A stretch of DNA of 64,000 bases from a virus, in IMG/VR virus record IMGVR_UViG_3300037418_002133, positions 52,087-116,086 of that record; one strand, written 5' to 3'. Shown piece by piece: positions 10,781 through 57,184 of this stretch. The notes below the pieces were generated by a model. That model had not been told where the DNA came from. It did no database searches and was given only the letters and a program-made list of their open reading frames with translations. Position 1 is the first letter of the stretch. Each line of letters starts with the position of its first letter. The position numbers were made by a program, and so were the translations under genes.

Positions 10781-10990
10781 TTTCGATCTCCGTGTTTGCT
10801 CAACACAAAGATCGTCGCATATCGCCTTGTGGGATGCGGTCGGGCGTATAAGGCGAGTTTATACGGCCTGGCGTTTACGGACCGGCCTGGCGATGGAAGA
10901 CGGCCTGGCCGAGGATGACCGGACCGGCCTGAAGCCCATGGAGCGCCATGCCTGCCCATGGAGGACCGAGGGATCTCTAAGGGCGCGTAA

Positions 10991-11024
10991 AACCCTATAG
11001 ATATATAAATATATCTATAGGGTT
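10991..11024. repeat. 16-bp perfect inverted repeat next to a CC-N9-CC box
   Basis: AACCCTATAGATATAT-aa-ATATATCTATAGGGTT; box at 11025-11037. Confidence 0.85.
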
Positions 11025-11037
11025 GGGATGCGAACGG

Positions 11038-11304
11038 CTACGCGAGGCAAAGCTCGCTGGACTGACGGGCTGCTTCTTCGATGCACAGCGCGACGAGGTG
11101 CTGGGCGTTGAAGGCTTTCTCGTGGAGCATCGCTTCGTTGATCGCGGGATCGATCTTGCTGATGGTCATTTCGTTGGTGTCGTAGTTGTAGGACGACGTG
11201 AACAGCACGGTATCTTTGTAGATCGCGCTGAAGGCGCATTCGGGGTTCATCGGGTGCGCGTCGTTGGAAAGCTCGATCTTGATGGTCTTGAGGGTGCTTT
11301 GCAT
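11038..11304 (-). CDS. hypothetical protein
   Basis: Own promoter (box 11353-11365); GAGAG-type RBS. Confidence 0.7.
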   Translation of the reverse strand: MQSTLKTIKIELSNDAHPMNPECAFSAIYKDTVLFTSSYNYDTNEMTISKIDPAINEAMLHEKAFNAQHLVALCIEEAARQSSELCLA

Positions 11305-11367
11305 GTTAGCTCTCGTTTGTGTGAACGTGAGAACTATCTCACGTTCACTTTTGGGATGCGAACGGGC

Positions 11368-11658
11368 TCAGACGGTCATGTCGAAGGAGATCTTCATGGT
11401 CTCGTCGACGATCAGCTTGCGGAGGGTTTCACTGGAGTTGCAGCGGTAGTAGACGCTGTCTCCCGCAGCAGCTTGCGCGTCGTTGGGATCGAACTCGCTG
11501 TCATGGAGCTGCGTGACGCGCACAGCGAAGCATTTGGTGTCGTCTTTGGCGATCGCGCACGCTTCGATGACGGTCCTTTGGTTCATGACGGAGAAGAAGC
11601 GCTCGCCTAAGTCTTGCGACATGAGGGAATCGAAAGTGGTTTTGTCGATCTGGTGCAT
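11368..11658 (-). CDS. hypothetical protein
   Basis: Start MHQIDK at 11658, downstream of an operator copy at 11681. Confidence 0.7.
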   Translation of the reverse strand: MHQIDKTTFDSLMSQDLGERFFSVMNQRTVIEACAIAKDDTKCFAVRVTQLHDSEFDPNDAQAAAGDSVYYRCNSSETLRKLIVDETMKISFDMTV

Positions 11659-11992
11659 GTTTTGCTCTCGCTGTGAAAATAAGTCAGTTCTGACATACGA
11701 CAGTATAGCTAGGAATGCGAGCGGCGGCTCGTGGTGCGTCCGTTGGGGTATCGAGCTGGGTCTGTAGCTTAGGAGCGCTAAGGACGCACCATGGGGCTTC
11801 CCTAGCGATTTCCCATGGGAAGCCATGGTTCGCCTCGGGACACCACGGCCGCGCCCTCTCCAAAAATCCGCCTTGGTTCGCCAATCGGTCGGTCCCATGG
11901 ACCCCACCGGTTCCAGATACCAAGGATGCCCCATGGTTCACAATTCGCCACAACGAAGGGGAGCCGAAGCTCCCCTCGCTGTCTCGTTCGCC

Positions 11993-12802
11993 TTACGCTG
12001 CCTTCGCGAGCACCGCTTCGAGCTTGGCGACCGCAGGGTGATCGGTCAGCTCGAACGTCGGGTTCTTGTGCGACCCCGAGCGCTTGACGATCCCGAGCGT
12101 TTCGAGCGCCTGCATCGTCGAGGAGGCTTGGGTCGGCGCCGTCGACGCTCCGACAGTGTGGCGGATCAGGATCGCCTTCACCGCGCCTTCGACGCGGATC
12201 TTGTCGGAGGCAGCGGCTTTCGCCAACTCGCCGGTGAACGTGATCCCAGCTTTGCGACAGGCGAACAGCGAGCGCATGATGGCGAAATTGATCTTGTTGG
12301 TGATTTCGCCACCACTGAGACCGACGATCGCATCGGCGAGCTTGCCGAACGCGTAGACGTTGTAGCGCTTGCCATCGTGTACGCTGCGGTTGACGAACGC
12401 CTCGGTGACACCGCACGCCAACAGCACCGCACCCGCTCGCGTCGAGGACAACTGGGCGCGCGCCTTCTTGAGCGTCTTCTGGATGTTGTCGTTGCCGTTC
12501 GCGAGTTCGAAGTCCGCACGCTCGTCGACGGCATTCGCCATCTTGACCGTCGCTTCGATTTTCGCCTCATCGCTGATGTTCGCCATCATGTCGTCGAAGC
12601 TCTGGATTTCGCCATCGGCCTGGACTTCGAGGACCGGGTCGATATTCGCCTCATCCTCGATCAGCGCCTCATCGATCGCCTCAAGCTCGACGATTGCCTC
12701 GGCCGACGCCTCATCGAGCATGTCGAGCGCCATGAACTGCACGGCGTTGCTGGTCTCGGTTTCGAGCGCGGCGATCTGAGTCTTCGTGGTCTTCTTTGCC
12801 AT
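11993..12802 (-). CDS. acidic N-terminal protein, paralog of island gene 9075-9692
   Basis: Start MAKKTT at 12802; hairpin at about 11958-11977; promoter box 12868-12880. Confidence 0.85.
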   Translation of the reverse strand: MAKKTTKTQIAALETETSNAVQFMALDMLDEASAEAIVELEAIDEALIEDEANIDPVLEVQADGEIQSFDDMMANISDEAKIEATVKMANAVDERADFELANGNDNIQKTLKKARAQLSSTRAGAVLLACGVTEAFVNRSVHDGKRYNVYAFGKLADAIVGLSGGEITNKINFAIMRSLFACRKAGITFTGELAKAAASDKIRVEGAVKAILIRHTVGASTAPTQASSTMQALETLGIVKRSGSHKNPTFELTDHPAVAKLEAVLAKAA

Positions 12803-13239
12803 TGTCGTTCTCTCGTTTCGTTGTCGTCGCGTCATTGCGACAATCGAACTATCTCAGAACGAGGCAAGGGAAGCGGTCGGCAAAACAGTAGGCGAATAGG
12901 CAAGGTGTAGGCGAAAATGGGTGAGGCGAACCGCGGGCCGGACCATGGATTTTCGCCACCTTTCCGCTAAGAGAATCTATCTACTAGATATATATCTTAT
13001 ATAGTGAAGAGACGGCTTTTTTCGCAGACACATTCCGGACGTCTAAAAGGTTCGCCATGGAGACTCAAGGGGCTCCGGTAGCGACTGATTTTACAGGGAA
13101 TTCAGACCCCGGCCGTGGAATGCCATGGGAAGTTATGGCGAACCTCGGCGACGCCATGGGTGTGTAGGCGAAAAGCCCTTGGTTTATAGGCGAAAATCGT
13201 GGGGAGAGCATGAGGCGAATTGGAATGCCACGGCGCGCT

Positions 13240-13830
13240 CTCTAATCTACCTTCTTCACCTCCTCTATTCGTACCCTCTCCCTCTCTTCAGACCCCTCAC
13301 CTCTTCACCACTGCTCTCTAGGCTCTCTCGCTCTGTAGGTTCTCTCTACGGTTCTTGAGAGTTTTAGGTTGAGGTCTTGGTGCTATTCGCTTTGGTGCTG
13401 GCTCTGACCGTTCCCTTTGTTTGATATATCGGTTGAGGTCTCTCTACCGGTTCCTGAAAAGTTGATGGTTGTTGTTCTGCTGGTTTTGGGGATTGTTGAC
13501 CCTCGTGTTCTGCTCTCTGAAAATTTTGCTTTGGGGTCTCTCTTGGGGAGTGCTGATTTTGGGTTCTGAAATCGCTTGTTTTGCTGGGAAAGTTGAGTGT
13601 CAACCTTTTGCATTTTCGAGGTGGGGTTGACGAAACGTTGACAAAAAGTAAACCAGAACTGACTTATACGGTAATCTGGTAGTGATATCGGGATTTGGGA
13701 GGTTTACTTCTGGTTCACATGTAAACCATTTTGAGAGCTGGAATTGGTATTGGTTTGAGAAAATCAGGGATTTTTGACGGGTTTTCAGCCGTTTGGTTTA
13801 GATCTTGGTTTACATGGTTGACAAACCATG
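13240..13830. other. non-coding, strongly strand-skewed region with GGTTTAC/GTAAACC repeats (possible origin or packaging region)
   Basis: Pyrimidine tract about 13240-13350, A-poor G/T tract about 13360-13620, repeats about 13649-13827. Confidence 0.4.
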
Positions 13831-13858
13831 GGGCCGGAATGGTCTGAAAGAGGGGCGT

Positions 13859-14359
13859 TTAAGCCCTCTCCTCTACCTTAATATCAGCCCTTGGCCTTGG
13901 CGTCGTCATAGCCGCGGTTGTAGTGAGCCTTCTGCTCGTCGGTCCAGTGGCCCCAGGGGCTCCTTGCCCAGCCGTAGGCGTGGTGTGTCTGGCCGAGGCG
14001 ATAGCAGTCCTGGTCGGTCGGGTTGTCCTGGATCCGACGGTCGTTCTCGGCGTAGTTGATTTCAGCCATAGTGAACTCCTCACCCCCTTTCTAGCAGACA
14101 TCGGCTCGATCGCGAAGCCGTCCGAGATTATCTGGGTCGTGGTCTCGACGATTTGGATGCCCGCCTCGTTGAGATCGCCATCATAAGCTGCGCCACCTCC
14201 ACCAGGATCAAGAAGAGACGTTAGCGCATCCTCGACGTGTTCGACGACATAGGTGCGATCTTCGGTGCAGTCGCGCATGTGTTCGGTTGCGACCTTGAGG
14301 AGCTTCTTCTCGTCGAAGACCTCGATCTCCATTTCCAGGCGGTAGGTCTTTTTGGTCAT
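13859..14359 (-). CDS. hypothetical acidic protein (3' part overlaps the next gene)
   Basis: GGAG RBS; N-terminal ~90 aa look coding. Confidence 0.5.
   Translation of the reverse strand: MTKKTYRLEMEIEVFDEKKLLKVATEHMRDCTEDRTYVVEHVEDALTSLLDPGGGGAAYDGDLNEAGIQIVETTTQIISDGFAIEPMSARKGVRSSLWLKSTTPRTTVGSRTTRPTRTAIASARHTTPTAGQGAPGATGPTSRRLTTTAAMTTPRPRADIKVEERA
13884..14069 (-). CDS. hypothetical protein
   Basis: GAGGAG RBS upstream. Confidence 0.6.
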   Translation of the reverse strand: MAEINYAENDRRIQDNPTDQDCYRLGQTHHAYGWARSPWGHWTDEQKAHYNRGYDDAKAKG

Positions 14360-14441
14360 GTGTCGTTCTCCATCAGTACCTTGGTGACCAGCGCTGTTAA
14401 GGCCAGGATCCCGAGGATGGCGCCGGCGTGCGTTATGACGA

Positions 14442-14774
14442 TCATCTAGCCCTCACAGCGACGGCGCTTTCCGATGTCAGGTCTGGATCGAAATTCCACA
14501 TCGAATTGACGTGGGTGAGAAACTCACGGCAAGCAGCTTCATCGGGCAAACGATAGTGGCTTGAGATACCGTTGAGGTGGCGCATATCTTTCGGCTCCAT
14601 AACGGTATCGTCAGGAAGAAGGGTGATTTCGCCGAGGTGATATTTCTGTCCGTCTCCTCGTTCGCAGGCGAGGATTTGGACAAAATAGCGTCGGTTCACG
14701 AGCGCCTGATAGCGCTCGCAACAATCACAGTCGAGGTCGGCCGGGTTTGCGGTGAAATATCGGGAGATATTCAT
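14442..14774 (-). CDS. hypothetical protein
   Basis: Tightly packed small-gene array. Confidence 0.6.
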   Translation of the reverse strand: MNISRYFTANPADLDCDCCERYQALVNRRYFVQILACERGDGQKYHLGEITLLPDDTVMEPKDMRHLNGISSHYRLPDEAACREFLTHVNSMWNFDPDLTSESAVAVRAR

Positions 14775-14775
14775 G

Positions 14776-14997
14776 TCAGCTTACTCCGATCGCGATTTCT
14801 TCGATGTTGTCCATCCGGATCCAGGTGTCAGGTGTATCGTCGTCCTCGATCCTCAACAGTAGCCATTCCTCGCTGTGTGCGACGACCGTGGCGCCGTTGA
14901 AGGTTCGGCCGGATTTGAGGATGAGGACATCGAGCCAGTAAGCCGTGCCCGCTTCGTCGAGCGTGGTCATCCTGGCGTTTGGTGATGCTTGGGTCAT
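14776..14997 (-). CDS. hypothetical protein
   Basis: Small-gene array. Confidence 0.6.
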   Translation of the reverse strand: MTQASPNARMTTLDEAGTAYWLDVLILKSGRTFNGATVVAHSEEWLLLRIEDDDTPDTWIRMDNIEEIAIGVS

Positions 14998-15004
14998 CTT
15001 TCCC

Positions 15005-15295
15005 TTACTCCGCGATCATATCGGGCTCGAAATCGCCGATATAGGCGAACGAGATTGTGTGGGAATGAATATCGAGATGACAGTCGATGTAGACCTCGCC
15101 CTCGACGTCCCAGCCGCGCACCTGAAGCACGTCGAGACTGAACGCCGTGGGAAGTCGATCGTGGTTCGGCATCGATTCGATCAGCGCCAGAAGACCGTCG
15201 ACTCTCGCCTTGTCCGTGATCTCCTCGTGATCGTAGTCGTAGTCTTCCGGGACGAATTGGTCGAAAAGGTTCTCGTAGTCGCCAAGAGTTCGCAT
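15005..15295 (-). CDS. hypothetical highly acidic protein
   Basis: Small-gene array; D/E-rich. Confidence 0.6.
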   Translation of the reverse strand: MRTLGDYENLFDQFVPEDYDYDHEEITDKARVDGLLALIESMPNHDRLPTAFSLDVLQVRGWDVEGEVYIDCHLDIHSHTISFAYIGDFEPDMIAE

Positions 15296-15302
15296 TGTCA
15301 GA

Positions 15303-15452
15303 TCACCCCTGCATATATTCGGAGACGGCGTCTTCCGCGCTCTCGACGCATTCGCGGATCGTGAGGAAGTGCTCTCCGAACTCCTTCATCATGTTCTTTC
15401 GAACGTCGCGCGCCACGCGCAGAATGAGCTTTTGCTTGTCCGATTTAACCAT
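15303..15452 (-). CDS. small hypothetical protein (49 aa)
   Basis: Manual translation MVKSDKQKLILRVARDVRKN...; GG/CC-free leader 15451-15502. Confidence 0.5.
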   Translation of the reverse strand: MVKSDKQKLILRVARDVRKNMMKEFGEHFLTIRECVESAEDAVSEYMQG

Positions 15453-15581
15453 TGCGACTCTCGCTCTCGTTGTGTTAGAGAGAATATCGCATATATTTCA
15501 ATGGTTTACTACTGGCGATGCTATGTCCCAGTAGCTTTCCGCGCAAGGCCAGCTATATTCAGAACAGCAGGAGCGACGTTG

Positions 15582-15782
15582 ATGGCGACGATGGTGACCG
15601 AGGTTTACGATGCGCTGAAATCCGCTGGCGTGGCGGAGGACAAGGCGCGTTCGGCTGCTGTCGCCATGGCGAACTATGAGCCGCGGTTTGCCGGCCTCGC
15701 CTCTGACCTGAACCTGGTGAAATGGATGGTCGGCTTCAATCTGGCGCTGACGGTCGCGGTGCTGTTCAAGCTGTTTCACTGA
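15582..15782 (+). CDS. DUF1640/CCDC90-like small membrane-anchored protein
   Basis: EVYDALKSAGVAEDKARSAA...LVKWMVGFNLALTVAVL; AGGAG RBS. Confidence 0.65.
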   Translation: MATMVTEVYDALKSAGVAEDKARSAAVAMANYEPRFAGLASDLNLVKWMVGFNLALTVAVLFKLFH

Positions 15783-16258
15783 CCTTGGTGCGGAGTTCTT
15801 CCAGCGCCTCGACACCAATCTTGTTCAGTTTGCCATTCGCCGCGAGTTCGACCAGACGCAGTTCCTGAATCGTCAGATCATTGCCATCGTGAGACTTCTG
15901 AAGGATCTCGATGGCAAAATTCTGCTGAACAATGCGCTCCTCGATCCATTTGCTATCCGTAGGTAGGGAAAGACGCTCCCTTTCCTGTTGAGTAAAGCGG
16001 GTGGCGCTGGGAAAGCTCGTCCAGCCCAGTTCGTTCGACCAGAAACCATCGTCATCATCGGTCGCTTGAATCACCCAGGTCATAGTCCTCTCCCGATCGC
16101 CATCAGTTCGTCGATGATGTTGTCCGTTTGTTGCCAGCCGATGGATTCGCGCCAATCAGGCCAGACGGTCGCGAACCATGTCCGCATCTGTCGTTGGTTT
16201 AAATCGCCTGGGTTGCCATGCTTGGCAACGAGGTTCTCGGCGATTTCGCGGCTCTCGG

Positions 16259-16579
16259 TCATGTCGCACCGCCAGTTTTGACGGTGACTGACAGAGCCGC
16301 CTCCAACTCCTTGCACCGCTCCGCAAGCTGGCGCGGCGTCAGGCCGGTTTCATGGGCGACGGTGAAGGCTTCCGCGATCAGATTGGCATTCGCGACGGCT
16401 TCGCGCTGACTTACAGCGGCATCCCATTCGTAAGGATAAAACCCACCTGGACGAACAATGGTCTTATCTTCATCGTCGACGGAATTGACGGATAACGGCC
16501 AACCGCTCCATTGACCGCCATCATCACAGATAAAGACGCTGGCAGGCCCCTGCGTGAACATTCTGCGGCTTTCGGTCAT
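16259..16579 (-). CDS. hypothetical phage protein
   Basis: ANANLIAEA motif; overlaps neighbours. Confidence 0.6.
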   Translation of the reverse strand: MTESRRMFTQGPASVFICDDGGQWSGWPLSVNSVDDEDKTIVRPGGFYPYEWDAAVSQREAVANANLIAEAFTVAHETGLTPRQLAERCKELEAALSVTVKTGGAT

Positions 16580-16956
16580 TGCGATTGAGCCTTCTGATAG
16601 GCGTTCCAGGCGTCAACCGCGCGGCCGGTATCGCCTGCTTCATGCATCCAGTGACGACGTTCCTGATCGCTTAGATTGTTCCACCATTTCATCCCAGCCT
16701 CGTCGTTTGCGCGATCTCGATCTGGCGTTTTACCAGACTTTAGAAACTCGTTGAGGTCGCGGCCGACGGACGTTTCACCGGGACACGGCGGTATGTCGCG
16801 CGGCGCCACTTCATAGCTTGGTTCGCCATCGTAGGTGCATGAATAGAACTTCCAATCATGCCGACCCCACGAGCCGTCGTCCTGATAGCAATACAGGCTT
16901 CGACCGTCGCGATAGTAGACGCGACAGTTGCCGTTGTCTTCCGAGTCAAATTTCAC
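16576..16956 (-). CDS. hypothetical protein
   Basis: Overlaps neighbours by 4 bp. Confidence 0.6.
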   Translation of the reverse strand: MKFDSEDNGNCRVYYRDGRSLYCYQDDGSWGRHDWKFYSCTYDGEPSYEVAPRDIPPCPGETSVGRDLNEFLKSGKTPDRDRANDEAGMKWWNNLSDQERRHWMHEAGDTGRAVDAWNAYQKAQSQ

Positions 16957-17294
16957 GCCACGATCCTCCCCTTCTCCATCGCTTCCTTGGCGTAGGCGCT
17001 GATCGGCTTGTCGCCTTCGAACGATCGATCACGCTCGACTGGCAGACCCAGTTTACCGCGAATCTGAATAACCTCATTCATATCCACATAGCCCAGCTCG
17101 GGCTCGCCGTGACCAAGGTCGCAGAGACCGAACGCCATACCCGTCTCGTCGATATCGGTCAGGAGCCAGGTACATTGGGCGTCGGGCGTAAACAGCTTCA
17201 CGACGGGGACGAAATCGTGTTCGCCCTTTTCCATCGTTCCTCGATTGGCGAGGAGCTGGCGATAGTCCCTTTCGGTCAGAATCCGGAATCTCAT
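16953..17294 (-). CDS. DUF2958 family protein
   Basis: PVVKLFTPDAQCTWLLT...AFGLCDLGHGEPELGYV...LPVERD. Confidence 0.85.
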   Translation of the reverse strand: MRFRILTERDYRQLLANRGTMEKGEHDFVPVVKLFTPDAQCTWLLTDIDETGMAFGLCDLGHGEPELGYVDMNEVIQIRGKLGLPVERDRSFEGDKPISAYAKEAMEKGRIVA

Positions 17295-17362
17295 GCGAAC
17301 CTCATCGTTTCGCGAATTTATGCGTCACTCTCGCACAACGCGCAACGGAATGCGGCTGGCAA

Positions 17363-17557
17363 TCAGGTGGTTTCGTCGATCTCCACCTCTTCGAGCTTGG
17401 TTTCGTCCCCGCAGGTGTTGCAATAGGCGTGGTCATAGGTGTCTCGAAGCACCCAGCGTTGATCTTCCACGTCCCACTCCGCCCAGGCGTCACGAACCAC
17501 ATCCTCAGAGCGACAGTCGCGACAGACGATGCGAATTTTCTTCGGTTTGTCGGTCAT
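17363..17557 (-). CDS. small zinc-ribbon protein
   Basis: CRDCRS...DAWAEWD...CNTCG. Confidence 0.6.
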   Translation of the reverse strand: MTDKPKKIRIVCRDCRSEDVVRDAWAEWDVEDQRWVLRDTYDHAYCNTCGDETKLEEVEIDETT

Positions 17558-17825
17558 TGAATGTCCTTCTTGGGATACTTGGCGATAGAGTAGACGTCGA
17601 CCTCGCGGAATTTCTCGTAGACCGCGGGCTCGTCCTTCAATTCCTGCATAAGATCACCCATGATCTCCGCGAGTTGCTGCGCGCCGCGGACGTCAGAGGT
17701 CGCGATGGCGATGTTGACCGGCCCCGCATGGGCTCGCAGGATCGGTTCGGCGTCATTGCCGATCTGCCGTGCGGTCCCGCCGAGGTCGATAACCGATTGG
17801 TCTTTGCGGAAAATACCGAGCCTCA

Positions 17826-18056
17826 TCATTCCCAAATCTCCGATGATTGGATCTCGAAGCGCTCGTCGTCGGCACATTCGAAATAACGGTCGATCGCCGC
17901 GTCCTTATCTGTCGGGATCGGCTCATTGGCGTTTACGCGTCGGTTCCACCATTCCTTGATGTAGGCGAACACGGCGTTCACAGCGGCCGACCGGGATCGA
18001 AAGACCCGCGTGTCGTTGCCGTCCTGATGATCGATCCGCATGACCCAGACGCTCAT
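17826..18056 (-). CDS. hypothetical protein
   Basis: GGAG RBS; promoter box 18110-18122. Confidence 0.6.
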   Translation of the reverse strand: MSVWVMRIDHQDGNDTRVFRSRSAAVNAVFAYIKEWWNRRVNANEPIPTDKDAAIDRYFECADDERFEIQSSEIWE

Positions 18057-18125
18057 TGTCGTTCTCCGTCTCGTGCGTTGTCACAAAGAACAGTCGCACG
18101 AGACGCTTAGGTTGTCGGTTGGCAG

Positions 18126-18554
18126 TTACTTGGCAGTCAGCGAAACCTTGCTTTTGCCAAAGTTGATGATGATTTGCTTGGCGCCGCGGTCGATGTAGTT
18201 CTTGATCGACTCGGCCCAGGGCAGCGTCTCGCCGAAATCGTCGCCACCGACAGCGTCGTGGGCGCGATCGTACCAATCCTTGTCGGTCTCGGGGTTGTAC
18301 CCCTTCGCGTAGACGACGTAGCGGGAGAAGTGCTCGTCTTTCGCCTTGGATGGATCCGCCGGGTCGCCAGGCGTTCCGTTTGACATCAGATACAGACCGC
18401 GATCCTTGACCAGAATCACGGACGGACCTTTGGGCGCTTCGGTAATCGGATTGAAATCCTTGTCGTAATCAACGAGGACTTCGCTCTGTTTGTTGGCGAT
18501 GGAGTGCTCGACGACCCGCTTCAGCGCGGCAGCGTCGAAAACCAGCTTTGCCAT
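18126..18554 (-). CDS. DUF3085 family protein
   Basis: LVKDRGLYLMSNG...VVYAKGYNP...VGGDDFGE. Confidence 0.8.
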   Translation of the reverse strand: MAKLVFDAAALKRVVEHSIANKQSEVLVDYDKDFNPITEAPKGPSVILVKDRGLYLMSNGTPGDPADPSKAKDEHFSRYVVYAKGYNPETDKDWYDRAHDAVGGDDFGETLPWAESIKNYIDRGAKQIIINFGKSKVSLTAK

Positions 18555-18600
18555 GATCTGTTGTCTCCTGTTTGCGATGATTAATCGTCGCACAGTCGCG

Positions 18601-18957
18601 TCAGGATTGCGGTTGGGAGAGCGCTCTGGGCTTCAGGTAGACACGCACGCGATAGGCCGTGTTTTTTGCCTTCATCATGCCGGTCAACAGGCACTTCGAT
18701 ATAAACTTGCCGTGGACTGTGCATCCGTAGCCATTGTGATAACTATGGATATAACCGTCGGGCTCCCCTCGCCTGCCCATCGCCTCGTCGACCGTGAGCC
18801 AGACGTGACCTTCGAAGCACGACGGAATCGGATCGCCATTCGGGAAGAACGGCTTCTCATAGACCGTGGCGCGTTCGATGCCGGCCCAGACGTCCGATAG
18901 ATCGTTCCAGTAGAGCCGCCCTTCCGGCGCCCGCTGGTTTGCCATGACGTAGCTCAT
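18601..18957 (-). CDS. hypothetical protein
   Basis: Overlap with upstream gene. Confidence 0.55.
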   Translation of the reverse strand: MSYVMANQRAPEGRLYWNDLSDVWAGIERATVYEKPFFPNGDPIPSCFEGHVWLTVDEAMGRRGEPDGYIHSYHNGYGCTVHGKFISKCLLTGMMKAKNTAYRVRVYLKPRALSQPQS

Positions 18958-19229
18958 GCCTCGTCTCCAGCCTGTATATTTTCCTCTACAAGATCCACGA
19001 CCGGTTCCTCATCCAAGAACCCGTGAATTGTCATCGAAGGCGAAAGACTGACTTGTGGAAGATCTGGATCATCGCACTTCAAATCCGAGATCAGATCGCA
19101 TCCGCCGGCATTGTCGACCTCGATATCGTCAAACTGGATTGTCTTGGCTAGTTCGATCGCTTCCGCTTTTGAGTTCGCCTTGATGTAGGCGGTCGCAACA
19201 ACCTCGATGTCGATGGAGTAAAGGTTCAT
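18954..19229 (-). CDS. hypothetical acidic protein
   Basis: Start MNLYSID at 19229 with AGGAG RBS. Confidence 0.6.
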   Translation of the reverse strand: MNLYSIDIEVVATAYIKANSKAEAIELAKTIQFDDIEVDNAGGCDLISDLKCDDPDLPQVSLSPSMTIHGFLDEEPVVDLVEENIQAGDEA

Positions 19230-19927
19230 GTTGAATGCTCCTGCGAAATTTGAATAAGAGTTGCACGACGCGCACTGGATAGCTTCCGGCGGCGTCAGGG
19301 TGTTGCGAGCGTTTCTAAGCGTCACAGAGCGTCGGGTTTGAGAGCGTGTCTCTTCACACAGCGAGACGACGCAAACGCATAGAAACGCAAACCTGAGCGT
19401 CTACGCAGCGCTCCCGTCGCTCTTTCGCTCGTGAAGTAGTTCGAGAAACTGCGGAAGGTCGGATTTCTTGCCGTCGGGCAGCGGTTTGAACCCCACGGAA
19501 ATGCTGACCAGGGTGTCGATCGGTGTCATCAGCCAGGTGTTGTCGATGGTGTTGCGCCCGTAGATGTCCGTCGGTGTAACCCGCACCGAGTCGATGCGGA
19601 AAACGCTGCCGTTCTCCAGGTTCAGATCGATGAAGGAAATTGCGTCTTGGTTCTCAGGATTGAGAAGGTGGAGCGCGCTAATCAGATTGCGAAACCCCTG
19701 CCTCATGGCGTCGTCACCCGCTCGACGTGCTTGGGATCCGAGGCGATCAAGGCGGCGCCGACGCACCGCATCATACTGCGTCGGTCGATCGGCCGCATAT
19801 CGCTCCAAGCCGGCACAGGATTGACCCGGTCTGGCGTCCGCCGGGTGAACTCACGGCGTAATTCGCGGACAAAGGCTTCGGTTGAGACGGCGAGCGTCGT
19901 TGCATCAGGAGTCGGCATGTTACCTCA

Positions 19928-19945
19928 TAAGTCAGAACTGACTTA
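19928..19945. promoter_or_regulatory. operator palindrome TAAGTCAGAACTGACTTA
   Basis: Just upstream of GAGG-ATG at 19918. Confidence 0.8.
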
Positions 19946-19981
19946 ATTATCGTGCGAAAACAAACGGTTGTCGAATGGTGT

Positions 19982-20365
19982 TCAGTTAACTTCCAGATGT
20001 TCCATCACCCGTTTGACAGTCACGGCGAACCAGACGCCACGACCGGATGGTGTCTCAACCTGATGTTCGTTGAGGTACTTGGCGATGTCGCGCAGACCGG
20101 TTCGCCCTTGGGCCTTGGCCTCGGCGATGACCGGCGCAATCTCGTTGCGAAACTTGACGGCTTTCAATTGCCGGACACGAACGGCGTCCTCACGCATCTT
20201 GTCCATGTCCGGATTGCCGTATTCCGCTGCAAGCGCGACCTTGGCCTGCTCTTTCAAATTCGACAAGGCCGCGGCAATCCCCTCGCCGGCCGGATCCAGG
20301 TCGATCACGGCCTGGGCCAGTTTCTTGAGGAGCTGTACGCGGCTCTCGTTGGACTTCTTGGGCAT
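19982..20365 (-). CDS. protein with only the C-terminal DNA-binding part of a serine recombinase
   Basis: GLRDIAKYLNEHQVETPSGRGVWFAVTVKRVM; no catalytic resolvase domain. Confidence 0.6.
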   Translation of the reverse strand: MPKKSNESRVQLLKKLAQAVIDLDPAGEGIAAALSNLKEQAKVALAAEYGNPDMDKMREDAVRVRQLKAVKFRNEIAPVIAEAKAQGRTGLRDIAKYLNEHQVETPSGRGVWFAVTVKRVMEHLEVN

Positions 20366-20366
20366 C

Positions 20367-20624
20367 TTAGTGAGTGGTTCCCACAATCTCGGGGTCTTTG
20401 GCCATCTGGAATAGAATATCCATGATCGCCGGCACCTTCAACGCCACAGAGAGCGCAACCAGTGTTTCACCAATCTTGAGTTGTTCGGGGGTGAACTGAG
20501 AGGGATCCGAGACGTTGTAGGTATTGAAAATCTGGACCGATCCGTCGGCCTTGATCACCAGGCCAGCATCGCCATCGGCGATCGGAGAGACAGGAGGTAC
20601 GAGTTCTTCGATGGAAAATGGCAC
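20367..20624 (-). CDS. hypothetical protein
   Basis: Promoter box 20681-20693 with GCTATA upstream. Confidence 0.6.
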   Translation of the reverse strand: MPFSIEELVPPVSPIADGDAGLVIKADGSVQIFNTYNVSDPSQFTPEQLKIGETLVALSVALKVPAIMDILFQMAKDPEIVGTTH

Positions 20625-20963
20625 GTCAGATCCTTTGAACGTTAACTGCTGCGATACGCACAGTATAGCGTCAGAGCGTTGGCGAGCGCACGGTTATGCC
20701 AAGGTCTGCGAATCAAAAGCCCCGCGACGGGGTGTGCGGGGCTTCCGTGAATAGAGCTTCTTGCTCGGAATAACGCGACCGCGTCGGTGCGGATCAGGAC
20801 ACCAACGGGTCGGAATGCGCTGGTTCAGTTTGTCGAAATCGACCTTTTTGAGACGCTTTGCCATGACAGATCACCTTTACAAAATTATTCCCAACTTTTT
20901 TCGGAATTATGCATTCCGGATACTGGTTTTTCTTGTGCGGACTCGACCCACATTATATCGCTT

Positions 20964-22148
20964 TTTAGCGTTTTCGCTAAATGGCGACGACGTAGGTAAA
21001 AAATCCGCGCTAATAAGACAAAAATCCTGTTGACCAGCTAAAGAACATACAGGAAACATGGTCAGTACCCTCGCCTGTCATCAAGGAGATTATTATGAGT
21101 TACCATAGTGTCGAGGAGTTCGCAGAAATGCGGTCTTCTCTTGCTCAACAACTAGTGTCCACCGCTGCTCGGTTTGCCGACGATCGTGGTTTGACGAAAC
21201 TGAACGAAGCGGCGTTGCGACAACTCTCGACTCCTGTGAACGACGTGGCTTTGGAACTCCTTGTCTTTGGCGCCGATGCCTGGCCCGAATATGTTCGGCT
21301 CGACAACGGTAGCGATTTCGCGAAAATGCTAAATGGAGAAAACGGCTCTTAACGAAAACTGCCTTTCGCGAAACCGCTAAATCGTCCTTTCGTTATTGCG
21401 CTAAAGGACGATTTAGCGAATTGTTACCTCGATCGAATCCCAGGTCCGCTCCTCGCCCGCTTCGTCGAGAAGTTTGGTAAGCGCCTTCTGAGTTGCCTCC
21501 GTTGGCGTCGCGCCGCTGGCCTCGACCGTCCGGATCCGCTGATGGGCCGCGTTATACGCAATCGCCATTGCCGTAATCAGTGCCATTTTCCATCGTTCTT
21601 TCGTTAAATCGTTATTTCGCCCAAGCGCTCTTTAGCGAATTGACGCCACGGAGCGCCTCCTTTGCATCGTAATTCGGGTGATTTTGCCACCATTTCAGTT
21701 TTCGCTCGCAGATGGTAAGTTCTTTTGCCGCCTGCATTTTCTCCGCTGTCGTGCCATTCTGATGCATAAAGGTCAGATATAGCAGGTTTTCGTAGTGTCT
21801 GAGGTAGCCCTTCACAGCATTCAGCTTGTGAAAGTCGACGGCGCCGGTGAACGGCTCGCGCTGCTCGGAATAAATCAGGCTCATCGCGTTCTCGCTAAAT
21901 CGCTAAATCGTGAATTAACGATAGCGCGTCGCACGTCGGGATGCGGCTGGCGATTGCACCCGTCGAACGGCAATCGCTAAAGAGCGAAATCGCTAAATAG
22001 CTCGTTCGCTAAAACGCGATTAGAGCGTCACTGAGCGTCGGATCGATTGAGACGTACAATGCAGCGTTAAGACGACGACAGCGCATCAGCGCGCGTTCCT
22101 GCTCGATCCCGGTGATGCTGTAGATCGCGAAATAGCGTTTTCGCTAAA
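20964..22148. repeat. cluster of TCGCTAAA/TTTAGCGA 8-mers (putative centromere)
   Basis: Copies at 20974, 21412, 21631, 21892, 21900, 21974, 21990, 22006, 22141 plus near matches. Confidence 0.65.
21612..21884 (-). CDS. hypothetical protein
   Basis: Promoter box 21938-21950 upstream. Confidence 0.65.
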   Translation of the reverse strand: MSLIYSEQREPFTGAVDFHKLNAVKGYLRHYENLLYLTFMHQNGTTAEKMQAAKELTICERKLKWWQNHPNYDAKEALRGVNSLKSAWAK

Positions 22149-32762: not shown

Positions 32763-32840
32763 GATTTCCCCTTGTGTAACGTCGTTCGCTAAGAAGAACA
32801 TAGCGAACGACGCTGCGGATTGCGGTTGGTAGAGTGTCGG

Positions 32841-34551: not shown

Positions 34552-34552
34552 G

Positions 34553-42243: not shown

Positions 42244-42281
42244 AATCGGGCCCTAAAGTCAGTTCTGACTTACATTATAGC

Positions 42282-46561: not shown

Positions 46562-46649
46562 TCTAAATTCCCCGGATCGTTTGTAACTTCTGCGATCAGT
46601 ATAGCGCTACTGATCGCGGAAGTCGGTTGGCAGCGTCAGGTAGATGCGT

Positions 46650-47030: not shown

Positions 47031-48121
47031 ATCGTAACACTCCGGATGGTTGAGAGAATGTCTGAGGCGCTCTCCTTGGTCATCAAGGCGAGATCCTCAT
47101 CGAGCGACAGCCCGTCGATGTATTTGTCGACCGACTCGTCTAGGGTTGAGGCTTTAGCCAGGGTCGAACCTGACCGGGCTGATACGACCTCGCGCGTGAC
47201 CTGAAACGTCACACCACACGCACCCATTTCTTCGAGTTCGGCGCGCATCGTGTTGATTTCGGAATCGGTCAGTTTGAGCCCTCGGATGCGGACGTAGTTG
47301 TCATCGACGAGGAGAGGTATCTCTTCCGGATCATCGTCCCCGGTGATTTCGATGAACGATGGCGCATGACTGGCGCAGAACTCCAGACGGTCCGGATAAA
47401 CCAGCAGAAATCCCGCCTGGGATCCAATGTCACCCCATTGTTGATGGGTCGTTGCCCCAATCGATACGACCTTGCCATCTTCCATGACCTTGTGATTGTG
47501 ATAGTCTCCCGCGAAGACGCGCTTGAAGCCCCATCCCGCGACCTCCGCGGCCGACAGACCGGAATCGGGCACGCCCGTCAGCACCCCGTCGATGCCGACG
47601 TGAATGATCAGATCGATGTCCGATAGCGAAATGCCCTTCGAAGTGAGTTCTTCGGCGATCTGCGCAATCTTGAGCCGCAGTTGCGTCTTATTGGCCTGCC
47701 AGGGGACCATCGCGACCGTCGTTGTGCCTCCGACGTTAATCAGGCTCCAGTCGGTCGTGATCAGGAAATTATCCAGGGCGCCCAGCGACTGAAATGCGTT
47801 GCCGAGTGCCGTCGTGTCCTTGCCGACCAGATCGTGGTTGCCGGGAATCGCCCAGATGAAAACGCCTTTGGCGAGGATCCCCTGAAACGCCTCGTGAACC
47901 GGATTGAACACTTCCGGGTCGATCGAGCCGCGAACATGGAAGAGGTCACCAGCGATGAACATGTTGTGTCCACCCCGGTCGAGCAGCTCCTGCGCCGCCC
48001 GTTTCAGTTCGTCGATGATGATCTGAAGGCGCGAATTGACGCCATCCTCGTTGACGGTCGAGAACGCACTCCATTTGTGCGCGTGAATGTCGGAGACGAT
48101 CAGATAGGGCGCTTCGGACAT
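47027..48121 (-). CDS. sbcD: SbcD/Mre11-like metallophosphoesterase nuclease
   Basis: SDIH, AGDLFH, PGNHD, GDYH. Confidence 0.9.
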   Translation of the reverse strand: MSEAPYLIVSDIHAHKWSAFSTVNEDGVNSRLQIIIDELKRAAQELLDRGGHNMFIAGDLFHVRGSIDPEVFNPVHEAFQGILAKGVFIWAIPGNHDLVGKDTTALGNAFQSLGALDNFLITTDWSLINVGGTTTVAMVPWQANKTQLRLKIAQIAEELTSKGISLSDIDLIIHVGIDGVLTGVPDSGLSAAEVAGWGFKRVFAGDYHNHKVMEDGKVVSIGATTHQQWGDIGSQAGFLLVYPDRLEFCASHAPSFIEITGDDDPEEIPLLVDDNYVRIRGLKLTDSEINTMRAELEEMGACGVTFQVTREVVSARSGSTLAKASTLDESVDKYIDGLSLDEDLALMTKESASDILSTIRSVTI

Positions 48122-48486
48122 CACGCAGCCTTCATCGTCACGGGCTTGGCGGCGTGCTTGGCGCGGCATTCCTCCTTCTTGGCGAGGATGCGCTCGATCT
48201 CCTTCAACGTCTCAATACGGACGTCGTAGCCGAGCACTTCCGCCAGCGAATAGAGGGTGCATTGCACGCCGGCGATCTCCTGCGGAACGTCACCCTTCTT
48301 GCGGACGTAGTATTCGTAGCAGAGCATCGCCGCGAGCTTGTCGAACGGCATTCCTGCCGCCCGAACCAGTTCGAAGAATTCCTCGGCGAAGCGCAGCAAG
48401 CGCTCCTCTGGATTGGTCATGTTCTCGACGCCAAAGACTTCGGTGCCGGCTGACACGGTATGTTCTTGAAGGTCCAGATCGCGCAT
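48121..48486 (-). CDS. MazG-like nucleotide pyrophosphohydrolase
   Basis: RFAEEFFEL...QEIAGV; operator 48498-48514 upstream. Confidence 0.6.
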   Translation of the reverse strand: MRDLDLQEHTVSAGTEVFGVENMTNPEERLLRFAEEFFELVRAAGMPFDKLAAMLCYEYYVRKKGDVPQEIAGVQCTLYSLAEVLGYDVRIETLKEIERILAKKEECRAKHAAKPVTMKAA

Positions 48487-48565
48487 TGTGTCCTCAATAA
48501 GTCAGAACTGACTTGAACAATATAGCGAGAAAGCAGCGGGAAGCGATCGGCAGATGCACCCCTCT

Positions 48566-49730: not shown

Positions 49731-50201
49731 TTAGACTGGTAATCCGTGTGAACGTGCGTATTGGCGACAGATTGTATGAGTTTTCCAAGTGACGGAAATT
49801 CCATGCGAACGTGCGTATGCAATGGCATACGCATTCTTCTCTGATTGAGCGGTGTTTTTTTGTTTAATTTTTTCAGGGTTATTTTTTGCCCACTCTTTCA
49901 CTTTCAGACGATCATATTCTGGATTTTTCAATCGAAATGATTTTCGACAACAAGTCTTTGAGCAATAGAGTTGCTTCGTTGTTTTCGATGTAAAACTTGC
50001 GCCGCAATGGATGTATGCACAACAACGATTTGAACGCGCAATTGCACGAATAACACTAACTAAATGAACGCGAGGCTTATTGTATTGGACGAAATAGCAC
50101 TTTCCGCAACAATAGCGTGTACCCATGCGCTTATGCGAAATATCCACGCCGCACGCCGGGTTCGCGCAAATTCGTGTCGAAATCTTCTTCGCTCGCGCCA
50201 T
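49731..50201 (-). CDS. Cys-rich, AT-rich hypothetical protein
   Basis: Two C..C/YC..C zinc-like units; lower GC. Confidence 0.55.
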   Translation of the reverse strand: MARAKKISTRICANPACGVDISHKRMGTRYCCGKCYFVQYNKPRVHLVSVIRAIARSNRCCAYIHCGASFTSKTTKQLYCSKTCCRKSFRLKNPEYDRLKVKEWAKNNPEKIKQKNTAQSEKNAYAIAYARSHGISVTWKTHTICRQYARSHGLPV

Positions 50202-50280
50202 TTGTCATCGTCTCGCAAAGTCAGAACTGACTTGATGTTGAGACTATAGCGAGAATCACACGGAAAACGATCGGCAGTCG

Positions 50281-54544: not shown

Positions 54545-55582
54545 TCAGTCGGCGCCGTCGAGTTCAGCGAGCATCCGCTCGACTTCGTCGTCGGTTTCAG
54601 TCGCGACCGGAGCAGTTGCAGGCGAGGCAACCGTCTCGACCTTTGCCGCCTTCTTACTGACGACGGAGGCCGCAGCAGCTTTGGTCTTCGCTTCCTTCGC
54701 CTTTTTGGCCTTGAGTGCCGCCATCCTCTCTTCCATTTCGCGGATCTCGCGATCTTCATCGCTCTCCACGACCTCGGGCTCAGGCTCGGGCTCGGGCAGC
54801 TTGACCTCGGCGCGCAGTTCGGCGATCTCCGGATCATCCTCGATGACCGCGTCGTCCACGACGCTCGACGTGAGCCGCGCCGTTGTGGTCTTCGGACCCG
54901 TCAGACGCGCCGAACTCGACACGTCGGTCCCGGAGAAGTCACCGATCGCGCGCAGCGCCTTCGGCTCGTCACCCCGGAACAGTTCACGCTCGATATGAGC
55001 GTCGAGATCGGGTAGGCGATCGTAGACGTCGGGCGGCACCGGCTTCGACTTCGGCATCGTCATCACGTTGTATTCCGTGTTGAGTCCGCGGCCAACGCGC
55101 TCGATGATAAAATCGACGCCATCGCTCGGGCTCATGATGTCGATGTCTTGGAGCTGGTACTCCTCGATCGTGCCGGCGATCTTGTTCCAGGTAGTGCCGC
55201 TGAGTTCGAGAATCTGCGGATCGGCGCTGGCATCGGGGCCGGAACGGATCAAAGCGGTGACGAGCACGCTGCTCTTTGCGCGCCACTTTTTGATGATCTC
55301 CAGCTCCTCGTCGGTCGCGCCCTTCTTGGCGATCTCGATTGCTGCACAGATCGCACACGGCTTGCCGTAGACCTCCTCGCTGCAACCGGTGACAGCGACC
55401 GGCGGGCCATCTTCTTCGGTCTTGATCCAATGAATGCCGATCTCACGCCAGAAGTCCTCGTTTCCCTTCTGGAGAAGCCGAACGACGGTCTTGCCTTCCT
55501 TCAGCTTGAGGGTGTTGCCGCTTCGCGCAAACTTGTTCTTGGACTTCTTGAGCTTGGCGAGCAGGGCTGGGTCAATTGCCAT
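54545..55582 (-). CDS. gp32-like single-stranded DNA-binding protein
   Basis: VRLL..HW..C..CAIC core, G.DF.I.R.G.GLNTEY, acidic tail; replication context. Confidence 0.65.
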   Translation of the reverse strand: MAIDPALLAKLKKSKNKFARSGNTLKLKEGKTVVRLLQKGNEDFWREIGIHWIKTEEDGPPVAVTGCSEEVYGKPCAICAAIEIAKKGATDEELEIIKKWRAKSSVLVTALIRSGPDASADPQILELSGTTWNKIAGTIEEYQLQDIDIMSPSDGVDFIIERVGRGLNTEYNVMTMPKSKPVPPDVYDRLPDLDAHIERELFRGDEPKALRAIGDFSGTDVSSSARLTGPKTTTARLTSSVVDDAVIEDDPEIAELRAEVKLPEPEPEPEVVESDEDREIREMEERMAALKAKKAKEAKTKAAAASVVSKKAAKVETVASPATAPVATETDDEVERMLAELDGAD

Positions 55583-55712
55583 TTTGGGTACTTTCAGTGC
55601 TTGGGTGACTGGATCAAACTGTCTCGCAAATTAGCGATTTAGCGAATTAGCGATAACAGTATAGCGAAAAATCTTCGGACTGCTTGTGGCAGTTAAATGG
55701 TTGATGTTCCTG

Positions 55713-56294
55713 CTAATTCGGCGAAACATACGCATAGACGCGAGAGGCGGGGTAAACCGCTTCTGCCACGCGATTGTTGTGATTGCCGGAAATCACGATC
55801 GGATCGCCGGTCTTGGTGAAACCCGATACGACGCCAACGTGACCGCCTCCGCGACGGTGCATCACCGCAATGGCGCCGACCCGCTTCGAGGTCCGCGGCA
55901 GCTTGGCGAACGAACGCGCCATATCCGATCCGGTGCCGTGATGACCGGTACGTTGCAGCACGAAATTGACGAACCTGGCGCACCACAGATGCGCTCGACC
56001 GAACCGCGGGCCGGATCCGATATACTGGCGTGCCTTCTCGACGATGCTGGGAGCGCCGTAGACGGGCGTAGTGATCGCGGGCCGCGATACAGCGACCGAG
56101 CGTTTTGAACGCTTGGTGGGTCGCTTGGCGCGTTCCTGGGGCTCGTCGCAGAAGAACAGAAAACATTCGGGTGCGGGTGCTGCGACCACGCGCTGATGAT
56201 GGGTGCGATGACGAGGGCGTGCGTCGGCCGAGTAGATCAGTGCGGACTGTGAAATCAGGGCGCAGAAAATCCCGACGGTCAGGCGTCGTTTCAT
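55713..56294 (-). CDS. secreted CHAP/NlpC-P60-like (TIGR02594-like) peptidoglycan hydrolase
   Basis: Signal peptide; LWCARFVN, GGHVG, ISGNH. Confidence 0.75.
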   Translation of the reverse strand: MKRRLTVGIFCALISQSALIYSADARPRHRTHHQRVVAAPAPECFLFFCDEPQERAKRPTKRSKRSVAVSRPAITTPVYGAPSIVEKARQYIGSGPRFGRAHLWCARFVNFVLQRTGHHGTGSDMARSFAKLPRTSKRVGAIAVMHRRGGGHVGVVSGFTKTGDPIVISGNHNNRVAEAVYPASRVYAYVSPN

Positions 56295-56315
56295 ATTTAC
56301 TCCAATCAGTGCGGT

Positions 56316-56573
56316 TTAGTTGTCGAACATTCGGCGAAGCTGGCGTTCGTGCCGGCGAATCATGAACGGGCGATTCTCGATCCAGCCCCAGATGCCGACG
56401 ACCAGGATCACCACCAGCAGGACGAAGAACGCCGCTAGAAACACGGCAACGACGAACGGCAAAGGCCACATCAACAGCAAAAGCCAGCCGAGCAGATTCG
56501 CCGAATTGAACGTGGTGCCGATAAACATGATATGCAGAAAGACCCCGATGCCGAGATAAAGGATGACGCGCAT
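56316..56573 (-). CDS. small membrane protein
   Basis: Highly hydrophobic, 2-3 TM segments. Confidence 0.6.
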   Translation of the reverse strand: MRVILYLGIGVFLHIMFIGTTFNSANLLGWLLLLMWPLPFVVAVFLAAFFVLLVVILVVGIWGWIENRPFMIRRHERQLRRMFDN

Positions 56574-57118
56574 TAGCTTGCCCTTACCGTTGCCTTGCGC
56601 ATTTCCTCTTGCTTCTTGAGGATGCGAGCCTTGCGCGCTTCGGCTTCTTCGGCCGCTGCGACGGAGGCGGTCATGCGCAGTTCGCCGGCGAGTTCGACGC
56701 GATCCTTGGCGCCGTGCTGAACCAGCATATCCTTGCGCTGCTGGAAGCTCTCGACGGCGCCCTTCGCGATCGCCTCGACTTGCTTCGCCTCGTTGATGGC
56801 GCGCTTGATGGCGATCACGGTCGGATGAACCGCAACTTCCTTTTCAAGCATCGCCTCGGTGATCTTGGTGCCCTTCTCGGTGTAATCCTCGCGCAGGTCG
56901 CGATAAACCTGCGACTCGCGAACCTCCAGAAGGAGCTTGAAATCGTTGACCTGGCGGGACGCTTTGGCTGCGACCTCGGCATAATGCAGATGCAGTCCAG
57001 GCTGCTCCTGCATCGCGCTGGAAAGATCCGTCAGCGAATAGCTGATGTCCTTCTTGATCTGATCCGCATCGAGCGGATTCTTGACGGTAATCTTTCGAGT
57101 TGATGCCTCTTCGGCCAT
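56573..57118 (-). CDS. coiled-coil protein, possible UvsY-like recombination mediator
   Basis: Helical; KITEAMLEKEV...ESFQQRKDML; replication cluster; operator 57133-57147 upstream. Confidence 0.5.
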   Translation of the reverse strand: MAEEASTRKITVKNPLDADQIKKDISYSLTDLSSAMQEQPGLHLHYAEVAAKASRQVNDFKLLLEVRESQVYRDLREDYTEKGTKITEAMLEKEVAVHPTVIAIKRAINEAKQVEAIAKGAVESFQQRKDMLVQHGAKDRVELAGELRMTASVAAAEEAEARKARILKKQEEMRKATVRAS

Positions 57119-57184
57119 GTCGCCCTCGTATGAGTCAGTTCTGACTTATATTATAGCGCAAATTTCTCGGAAGCGAACTGGCAG

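Follow-up and report, generated by a model that had tools for sequence, protein, structure and literature searches.

A predicted class of phage promoters with a 13-nt box and a GG/CC-free initiation footprint in a 116-kb virus record

A pair of CC dinucleotides set 11 bp apart recurs upstream of minus-strand genes in a 64,000-nt stretch of viral DNA (positions 52,087 to 116,086 of the IMG/VR virus record IMGVR_UViG_3300037418_002133, hereafter the window), which forms the final 64 kb of a record of 116,086 bp. An earlier note, made from the letters alone, had taken this recurrence for a phage promoter class whose leaders avoid GG and CC. Are these sites indeed promoters, what would read them, and why does the DNA behind them lack the dinucleotides that mark the box itself? 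The observation as a whole was confirmed: in its plus-strand form, GG-N9-GG, the pair is present at all 19 coordinates claimed for it. As developed below, the sites very probably represent a genuine phage-specific promoter class that needs a phage-coded factor.

Read on the minus strand, which carries nearly all genes of the genome, the box has the consensus tGCC(a/g)N(c/t)CGC(a/t)T(t/c)CC, or in short form (G)CC-N3-CGC-W-T-Y-CC (13 nt). The two CC pairs occur at every site, as had been claimed; conservation is wider than the claim, extending to a 13-nt box with more fixed positions than the CC dinucleotides. A position weight matrix (PWM) built from the sites scores 15 places at 14 bits or more on the minus strand and none on the plus strand (1.1 in Markov shuffles), and the untrained pattern CCNNNCGCWWYCC has 16 matches on the minus strand and none on the plus. 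Past the box stands a -10 hexamer, (T/G)ATAnT, with A at its second position (A-11) in 21 of 21 sites, T at its sixth (T-7) in 19 of 21, and GC directly 5' of it in 15 of 21. The spacer between box and hexamer measures 13 nt at 8 sites and 14 nt at 12, hence 13-14 nt in 20 of the 21; the -10 that the note had placed at 11-12 bp is the same element, the shorter figure being the distance to the GC. With transcription starting 6-8 nt past the hexamer, the box would span about -39 to -27 relative to these predicted starts. Its placement before minus-strand genes also holds, the distance from box to ATG being 48-69 nt at 16 of the 19 window sites, and GG-less Shine-Dalgarno sequences (GAGAG or GAGA), reported for several of the ribosome-binding sites (RBS), were recognized by eye at 8 of 20 sites.

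Two more strong sites, at genome positions 10004 and 12786 and so outside the window, stand ahead of replication-type genes, and four weaker ones are found in the window (42293, 19966, 19277 and 15503). In total, predicted box promoters stand ahead of about two dozen early genes, which include those for a gp32-like single-stranded DNA-binding protein (SSB), an rIIA-like protein, a phrog distantly matching UvsY, a weak MazG-like match, a DUF3085 protein and members of a winged-helix family, together with many small open reading frames (ORFs). In a PWM scan, the structural block of ~40 kb contained no box of 14 bits or more. The nature of the genes served and the box-less structural block therefore point to a prereplicative class. 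A k-mer enrichment of the intergenic DNA revealed no further abundant motif besides the box, the -10, a palindrome described below and GTGAAGAG.

Might the sites serve instead in termination or processing of upstream transcripts, or in replication or recombination, the hexamers being coincidental? Five of them do carry long, unique inverted repeats across the -10, and the site at 11025 is terminator-like with no gene behind it. Such a role, the least probable of the readings considered here, is at odds with the fixed spacing between box and hexamer, the constancy of A-11 and T-7, the fixed distance of ~50 nt to the start codons, and a total strand bias that follows gene direction in three phages. 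From this geometry we infer that the sites are promoters.

The GG/CC-free windows reported behind the boxes are real. Among the 44-nt windows immediately past the box, 15 of 21 are free of both dinucleotides, against 0.42 expected from composition-matched shuffles; the 60 nt upstream of the box contain about 7 GG/CC, and at 10831, 11025 and 12868 a single GG/CC occurs 2-4 nt past the box. When boxes were chosen by sequence alone, 12 of 16 were followed by at least 35 free nt (~0.3 expected; 1.9% for a random position), so that the purge is independent of site selection. The 26 untranscribed nt past the box hold 4 GG/CC against 50.8 expected, the segment from +1 to +19 holds 9 against 38.9, and that from +20 to +44 holds 47 against 64.7, which is near the genome-wide ratio of 0.77. 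The purge, usually ending at the GG of the Shine-Dalgarno sequence, thus has its limits at about -26 and about +19 of the predicted start (~45 bases, untranscribed DNA included) and matches the span of an initiating polymerase downstream of the -35 region. The earlier proposal, in which the melted region was the unmarked zone, was in this respect too narrow, as the purge takes in approximately the whole stretch that polymerase covers downstream of the box.

The purge is also a property of this class of leaders, with an observed/expected GG/CC ratio of 0.26 for box promoters, 0.80 for leaders that have only the palindrome and 0.95 for other leaders. Avoidance of protospacer-adjacent motifs (PAMs), which the note had already considered no explanation, or of restriction sites is rejected because the purge is confined to the box promoters. 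A cause acting solely at the RNA level (Rho loading, stray Shine-Dalgarno pairing or a GG-cutting RNase like T4 RegB) was likewise rejected, because the 26 untranscribed nt past the box are the most strongly purged. Since both strands and untranscribed DNA are affected, the purge acts on DNA.

The same box, spacing and purge are conserved in the Rhizobium phage RHEph10, in a Methylocystis metagenome-assembled genome (MAG) and in a 109-kb contig of Faunimonas pinastri. In the Rhizobium phage RHph_X66 (X66) there are ~26 such promoters on the coding strand, laid out as CCGCTCAC-N2-CCTgCCGCAyTCC, 11-12 nt, GCGCTATAA, and then a GG/CC-free stretch up to the RBS. A count of CC-N9-CC with 35 or more GG/CC-free nt behind it yields 27 cases on the coding strand and 1 on the other in this phage (Markov expectation 7.2), 27 and 1 in RHph_X66 (4.8), and 15 and 0 in the partial RHEph10 sequence (5.7). 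Each relative possesses its own GG/CC-free island, and homologues of the candidate reader favoured below occur also in Methylobacterium.

Which part of these promoters belongs to the host? The primary-sigma consensus is CTTGAC-N17-CTATAT in Sinorhizobium (PMC2873474) and TTGaCgS / GCtANAWC in Caulobacter (PMC8144410). Like alphaproteobacterial RpoD promoters, the box promoters have a -10 region with GC at -14/-13, their GC-TATAnT matching the RpoD -10; unlike them, they have no -35. Where a canonical -35 would be expected there is (C/T)CGCAT, the (C)CGCAT core of the box lying 16-17 bp from the -10, and no CTTGAC-like hexamer occurs 17 bp from the -10. CTTGAa-N17-TATAnT is the layout of a few late promoters in this genome, and GC-TATAAT is found also in box-less promoters.

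One could suppose from the host-type -10 that the promoters depend on the host only, the box being an unusual -35 or the site of a host factor with no phage protein involved, and a conserved host factor would allow the box to be kept in phages of several alphaproteobacterial host families. Yet the box is unlike CTTGAC, and the chromosome of Faunimonas, the one complete host genome in which enrichment was assessed, is not enriched: the combined box and -10 pattern has 13 matches in the genome as compared to 5 in controls, 4 of the 13 being on the phage-plasmid contig, and the 9 chromosomal matches (again versus 5 in controls) all have GG/CC in the spacer. Dependence on the host only is therefore improbable. 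Because there is no such regulon in the Faunimonas chromosome, the reader is probably phage-coded, in keeping with the phage factor that the note had inferred.

A phage box that redirects host polymerase is known from the middle promoters of T4, in which the MotA box lies 12 +/- 1 bp from the -10 (PMC2988021). Like these, the promoters described here keep a -10 of host sigma type, replace the -35 by a phage box at a fixed distance (here 13-14 bp), occur in dozens of copies per genome and stand ahead of prereplicative genes, the SSB gene and rIIA among them. Unlike the T4 promoters, they have a 13-bp, G+C-rich box centred near -33 (T4, -30) and a GG/CC-free footprint, and the candidate binder is a winged helix, as opposed to the double wing of MotA. 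The MotA/AsiA families (PF09114, PF09158 and PF09010) had no match in the genome at E values up to 0.1, a search in which the controls were silent too and whose sensitivity is thus unproven. With no MotA/AsiA homologue found and a candidate binder of a different fold, we do not consider these promoters members of the T4 middle system.

The note had named two kinds of protein as possible readers, and, judging from their models, both would be structurally able to read DNA. The first is a winged-helix family whose full-length member is a 269-aa protein (11993-12802, minus strand; the 11993 protein) with at least 282 homologues at 42-75% identity, many of them on contigs of ~110-118 kb. No Pfam domain was found in this protein. 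Its AF2 model (pLDDT 87) shows a variable acidic N-terminus, a helical domain and a C-terminal winged helix; residues 155-269 align with 2qvo (Z 9.3, rmsd 2.8, 83 residues aligned), followed by winged helices of the MarR, ArsR and ORC types, and Foldseek returned probabilities of 0.9-1.0 at E values above 0.04. The segment of the recognition helix is nearly invariant in the family. Two paralogues are present in the genome: one at 9075-9692 (plus strand), encoded by GG/CC-free DNA within an island at 8802-10024, and a divergent third at 24057-24752 (minus strand; 25% identity in alignment A1).

The second candidate is a sigma-like protein of 212 aa (61521-62159, minus strand), whose family comprises 368 proteins of ~210 aa. 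It matches Pfam Sigma70_r2 (E 2e-9) and has no Pfam match for region 4; a sequence search against the PDB gave nothing useful. Its model (pLDDT 90) is composed of domain 2 (residues 1-83) and domain 4 (residues 111-212), with no domain 3. In the model, domain 2 resembles 8b3z (Z 9.6) and 3ugo, a complex of sigma-A domain 2 with -10 DNA (Z 9.2, rmsd 1.6); the matches of domain 4 have middling Z scores, namely 3mzy (8.0), 4cxf (CnrH, 7.4) and 3vep (SigD4, 6.8).

The box could thus be the -35 of this phage sigma, domain 4 being placed on the box and domain 2 on the -10 and the protein replacing host RpoD. Phage-coded sigmas replace the host sigma on core polymerase in SPO1 and phiEco32. The domain composition of the model, the strict spacing of 13-14 nt and the position of the box core at the canonical -35 all suit such a reader; moreover, this sigma is present in each of the relatives that have box promoters, and in the order of transcription the sigma-gene operon precedes all of the box promoters. 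On the other hand, the -10 keeps the host features G-14/C-13 and T-7, for which primary sigmas need regions 1.2 and 3.0, and the two-domain model has neither; box-less promoters, too, have GC-TATAAT. Among phages that share the box the sigmas are only 28-30% identical, with a moderately conserved putative recognition helix, and the sigma gene is unpurged, while the GG-free neighbours of the island already use box promoters. A sigma reader is consequently a possible but less favoured reading.

Comparison with the promoters of phage and extracytoplasmic function (ECF)-type two-domain sigmas (SPO1 gp28 and the phiEco32 sigma; see also PMC12276001) gives a similarly mixed picture. Domains 2 and 4 only, a bipartite promoter and strict spacing are common to both, but the -10 here is of the host primary-sigma type and not the ECF-type CGT, and the box has about twice the usual length of a -35. 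ECF-type motifs (a GGAAC-like -35 and a CGT-like -10) are absent, the consensus here being CC-N3-CGCATTCC and GC-TATAnT.

We rank the winged-helix family first as the putative box reader, for three reasons: the -10 has retained features typical of the host sigma; near-invariance among distant kin is common to the box and the recognition segment, the sigmas being 28-30% identical; and the sense-GG-purged genes beside the island use box promoters while the sigma gene is unpurged. The last contrast suggests that these box promoters probably fire when only the island products are present. The choice between the winged-helix and sigma readers is nonetheless close.

In the explanation that we prefer, to which we assign a probability of roughly 0.4 in its entirety, winged-helix reader included, the box sites would be prereplicative (early/middle) promoters of a phage-plasmid. 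Host polymerase with its own primary sigma would read the host-type -10 (G-14 C-13, then (T/G)ATAnT with A-11 and T-7), and the 13-bp phage box at about -39 to -27 would replace the host -35 (CTTGAC). A phage-coded DNA-binding protein on the box would recruit or redirect the polymerase, as the MotA box does for its promoters. Made first, the GG/CC-free copy at 9075-9692 would then activate the box promoters, among them the ones ahead of its full-length paralogues. Between the box and about +19 the DNA would have to be GG/CC-free, and the agent behind the GG/CC loss of the island, whether a DNA mark or a factor reading GG/CC, would also block initiation complexes.

Several points weigh against this explanation. 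The promoter status of the sites depends on starts predicted from sequence, and MotA and AsiA homologues were not found. The winged-helix match is middling and indicates a fold, not a function; the 11993 gene moreover lies among clusters of CCATGG, which could be the true target of its product, and this could equally be a replication initiator or other site-specific binder. A bipartite promoter with its box core at the canonical -35 would be read more simply by the two-domain sigma. The argument that the island products suffice takes the purge as a sign of the order of expression, and the explanation offers no mechanism for the required absence of GG/CC.

What, then, could the purge represent? 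The island contains two runs without GG or CC, of 951 and 272 bp, which encode proteins of 205 and 54 aa, the larger of them devoid of Gly, Pro and Trp. The product of 9075-9692 is one of just two proteins encoded by fully purged DNA. The island promoter, which the note had described as sigma70-like, is at best a weak match to that consensus. The two box-driven genes beside the island, 11038-11304 and 11368-11658 (both on the minus strand), are purged of GG on the sense strand, which contains 0 GG and 25 CC in the former and 4 GG and 20 CC in the latter. Their X66 counterparts (5770-5898 and 5970-6308) show a weaker GG deficit (2 versus 6 and 8 versus 28 expected). The 88-aa and 96-aa products of the two genes match no known family, and a protein-atlas look-up of the 88-aa GG-free protein and the 11993 protein returned unnamed clusters and winged-helix look-alikes only. 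The GG/CC content of the sigma gene is normal, and most phage genes are near the genome-wide ratio. The pattern that needs explanation combines a purge of both strands in promoter footprints and island with a purge of sense-strand GG in the next two genes, all other DNA being of normal content. It could be accounted for by a mark on virion DNA, or by a GG/CC-directed factor that halts host polymerase when this is unassisted.

In the first of these variants, which is combinable with either reader, virion DNA would be marked at CC/GG, the CC pairs of the box would be read in modified form, and the remaining promoter would be purged. The purge of both strands and of untranscribed DNA implies action on DNA rather than on RNA; it is limited to the class working on incoming DNA, the leaders of late genes being unpurged; it is graded in the island and its neighbours; and an operon of two ParB genes and an ABC-ATPase gene adjoins the packaging genes. 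T4 provides precedents, cytosine modification altering the use of the MotA box (PMC2988021). The genome, however, has no match to DNA methylase domains of the three common kinds searched (N6/N4, C5 and D12), and no modification enzyme was identified in it. Since most phage genes keep GG/CC near the ratio of 0.77, any mark would have to be harmless to elongation later in infection. Many box positions besides CC are conserved, which plain sequence reading explains. We consider a CC/GG mark unlikely.

More broadly, and with considerable reservation, we propose a tiered cascade, in which a superfamily of alphaproteobacterial phage-plasmids would distinguish templates by GG/CC, an agent reading this step and blocking host polymerase. 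The agent might be a mark laid at packaging, or a factor acting on GG/CC in initiation and, on one strand, in elongation. The first tier would be the fully purged operon and the second the genes purged on the sense strand only. In the third, ~20 promoters would be purged over the polymerase footprint, the only CC steps being the two read by the activator. T4 Alc acts on cytosine DNA, and T5 has first-step-transfer DNA. The cascade would resemble these in that the early units are so composed as to escape a factor directed at other DNA; it would differ in its discriminating word, here GG/CC, which is excluded from promoter footprints and a few whole genes.

Phage-specific promoter classes are well known, but we know of none defined partly by the absence of a dinucleotide over the polymerase footprint, and a literature search found no paper joining phage-plasmid, Rhizobium, sigma factor and promoter. 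A single testable cascade would link the GG/CC-free early operon, the strand-specific purging of the next genes and the prereplicative promoters, and its study should bring to light either a novel means of redirecting host polymerase or a DNA mark or reader not known before. Experiments are feasible, since the group has cultured members (RHEph10 on Rhizobium etli CFN42, and RHph_X66). For annotation, the rule of box, 13-14 nt and GC-TATAnT may be applied to promoters of this phage group.

The individual sites, all on the minus strand, are given here from the right-hand end of the window leftwards. The promoter at 57125-57181 precedes 56573-57118, with its box at 57169-57181 (core offset by 1), a -10 TATAAT at 57150-57155 and the palindrome, a putative operator, just past the -10. 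That of the gp32-like SSB gene (54545-55582) lies at 55612-55689; its box at 55677 is atypical in having no CGC core and 94 nt to the gene, and its leader contains TCGCTAA repeats. These are followed by 50199-50274 before the ORF 49731-50201 (palindrome in the leader), 48493-48550 before 48121-48486 (the weak MazG-like match) and 46575-46630 before 46208-46561 (10-bp-arm inverted repeat across the -10). A weaker member at 42274-42305, before 41743-42228, consists of CC-N9-CC without the CGC core, GCTATAAT and then the palindrome. The site at 37418-37497 (box 37485) is atypically distant, 180 nt from 36936-37304, and has the palindrome in its leader. Further sites are 33870-33928 before 32841-33863; 32771-32829 before the rIIA-like gene 30258-32762 (12-bp-arm inverted repeat across the -10); 24762-24834 before the third winged-helix paralogue; 21879-21950 before 21612-21884; and 20633-20693 before 20367-20624.

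Weaker members occur at 19946-19978 (CC-N9-CC, GATAAT and palindrome) and at 19257-19289 before 18954-19229 (9.5 bits by PWM). Box promoters then precede 18126-18554, the DUF3085 gene (18568-18616), 17826-18056 (18067-18122; 11-bp-arm inverted repeat across the -10) and 16953-17294 (17301-17359). Another weaker member, 15483-15515 before 15303-15452, has a 52-nt GG/CC-free leader and a GAGAG-type RBS. The promoter of the winged-helix gene 11993-12802 (12800-12880) has one CC 3 nt past the box and then 64 free nt. Next to the island, 11653-11724 before 11368-11658 (box 11712) is atypical in its poor -10, set at the regular distance, and has the palindrome in the leader; 11294-11365 before 11038-11304 has a 12-bp-arm inverted repeat across the -10; the atypical 10993-11037 has no gene behind it, and past its box there is a terminator-like 16-bp-arm hairpin with a T-run; and 10788-10843 precedes 10544-10780, with one GG 4 nt past the box.

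The five inverted repeats across the -10 (46575-46617, 32771-32816, 18067-18109, 11294-11352 and 10993-11024) have arms of 10-16 bp, the 99th percentile of the null being an arm of 7. Similar ones occur at the Methylocystis locus. Each of the five is of a different sequence, and a shared operator was therefore rejected; they may form hairpins in read-through transcripts from the upstream gene and thereby serve to terminate or process these transcripts or to mask the RBS.

The palindrome AAGTCAGnnCTGACTT has 34 copies in the genome (up to 2 mismatches; 0.3 expected), e.g., at 57132, 50218, 48499, 42256, 40548, 37437, 35657, 29018, 19929, 11681, 3350 and 63450. It is intergenic, occurs with early and late genes, and is located either just past the -10 (10 cases) or so as to fill the 17-bp spacer of the CTTGAa-N17-TATAnT late promoters. 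The relatives have other palindromes in the same places (TAAGTAAnnnCTTACTTA in X66 and AGTCAGTAAATATTGACTGACT in RHEph10), and the set looks like the operators of a fast-evolving repressor, by analogy with P1 C1. An AT-rich stretch followed by TATA-GTGAAGAGACGGCT is present in three copies, at window position 13004 (plus strand) and, beyond the window, at genome positions 51372 and 17040 (both minus strand). One copy precedes the gene before the terminase-like genes and another lies ~200 nt upstream of the 11993 promoter, with related elements at matching places in X66 and RHEph10; this element could be a third promoter class, an origin or a packaging signal. Tandem TCGCTAA / TAGCGATTT repeats are found at 55600-55660 and 21890-21915 of the window and at about 25770-25830 of RHEph10. 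They occupy the leader of the gp32-like SSB gene in this phage, RHEph10 and X66, and may serve as a self-regulation site, by analogy with T4 gp32. Of the 27 CCATGG sites in the genome, 16 cluster at 10090-13826, in GG/CC-rich intergenic DNA that surrounds the 11993 gene and the box promoters near the island; the clusters may be iterons, or may mark a site of packaging or partition.

The element itself may tentatively be regarded as a ~116-kb phage-plasmid of soil alphaproteobacteria. A repeat of 127 bp at the ends of the record could, judging from its length, stem from a circular sequence whose assembly overlaps itself. The Rhizobium phages RHEph10, RHph_X66, RHph_N1_10 and B1VFA are distant matches only, in gene content and order, the common order being CobT, CobS, sigma, DNA polymerase III alpha/uracil-DNA glycosylase (UDG), gp32-like SSB, exonuclease, RecA and rIIA/B; RHEph10 is included in a phage-plasmid survey (PMC7969092 and preprint). 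No close relatives with the sigma protein or the 11993 protein were found in IMG/VR, a megablast search of plasmids gave no match, and the sole nucleotide match among phages was of 90 bp. The sequencing runs listed for window positions 10500-20400 are of soil and rhizosphere DNA, none of them RNA. The DNA polymerase III alpha gene (57185-60526, minus strand) carries a C-terminal UDG-like domain (PF03167, E 1e-6), a fusion that occurs also in RHEph10 and X66. Finally, a Tad2-like gene (Thoeris anti-defence 2, PF11195, E 2e-25) is located at 537-842 (minus strand), inside the ParB / ABC-ATPase operon.

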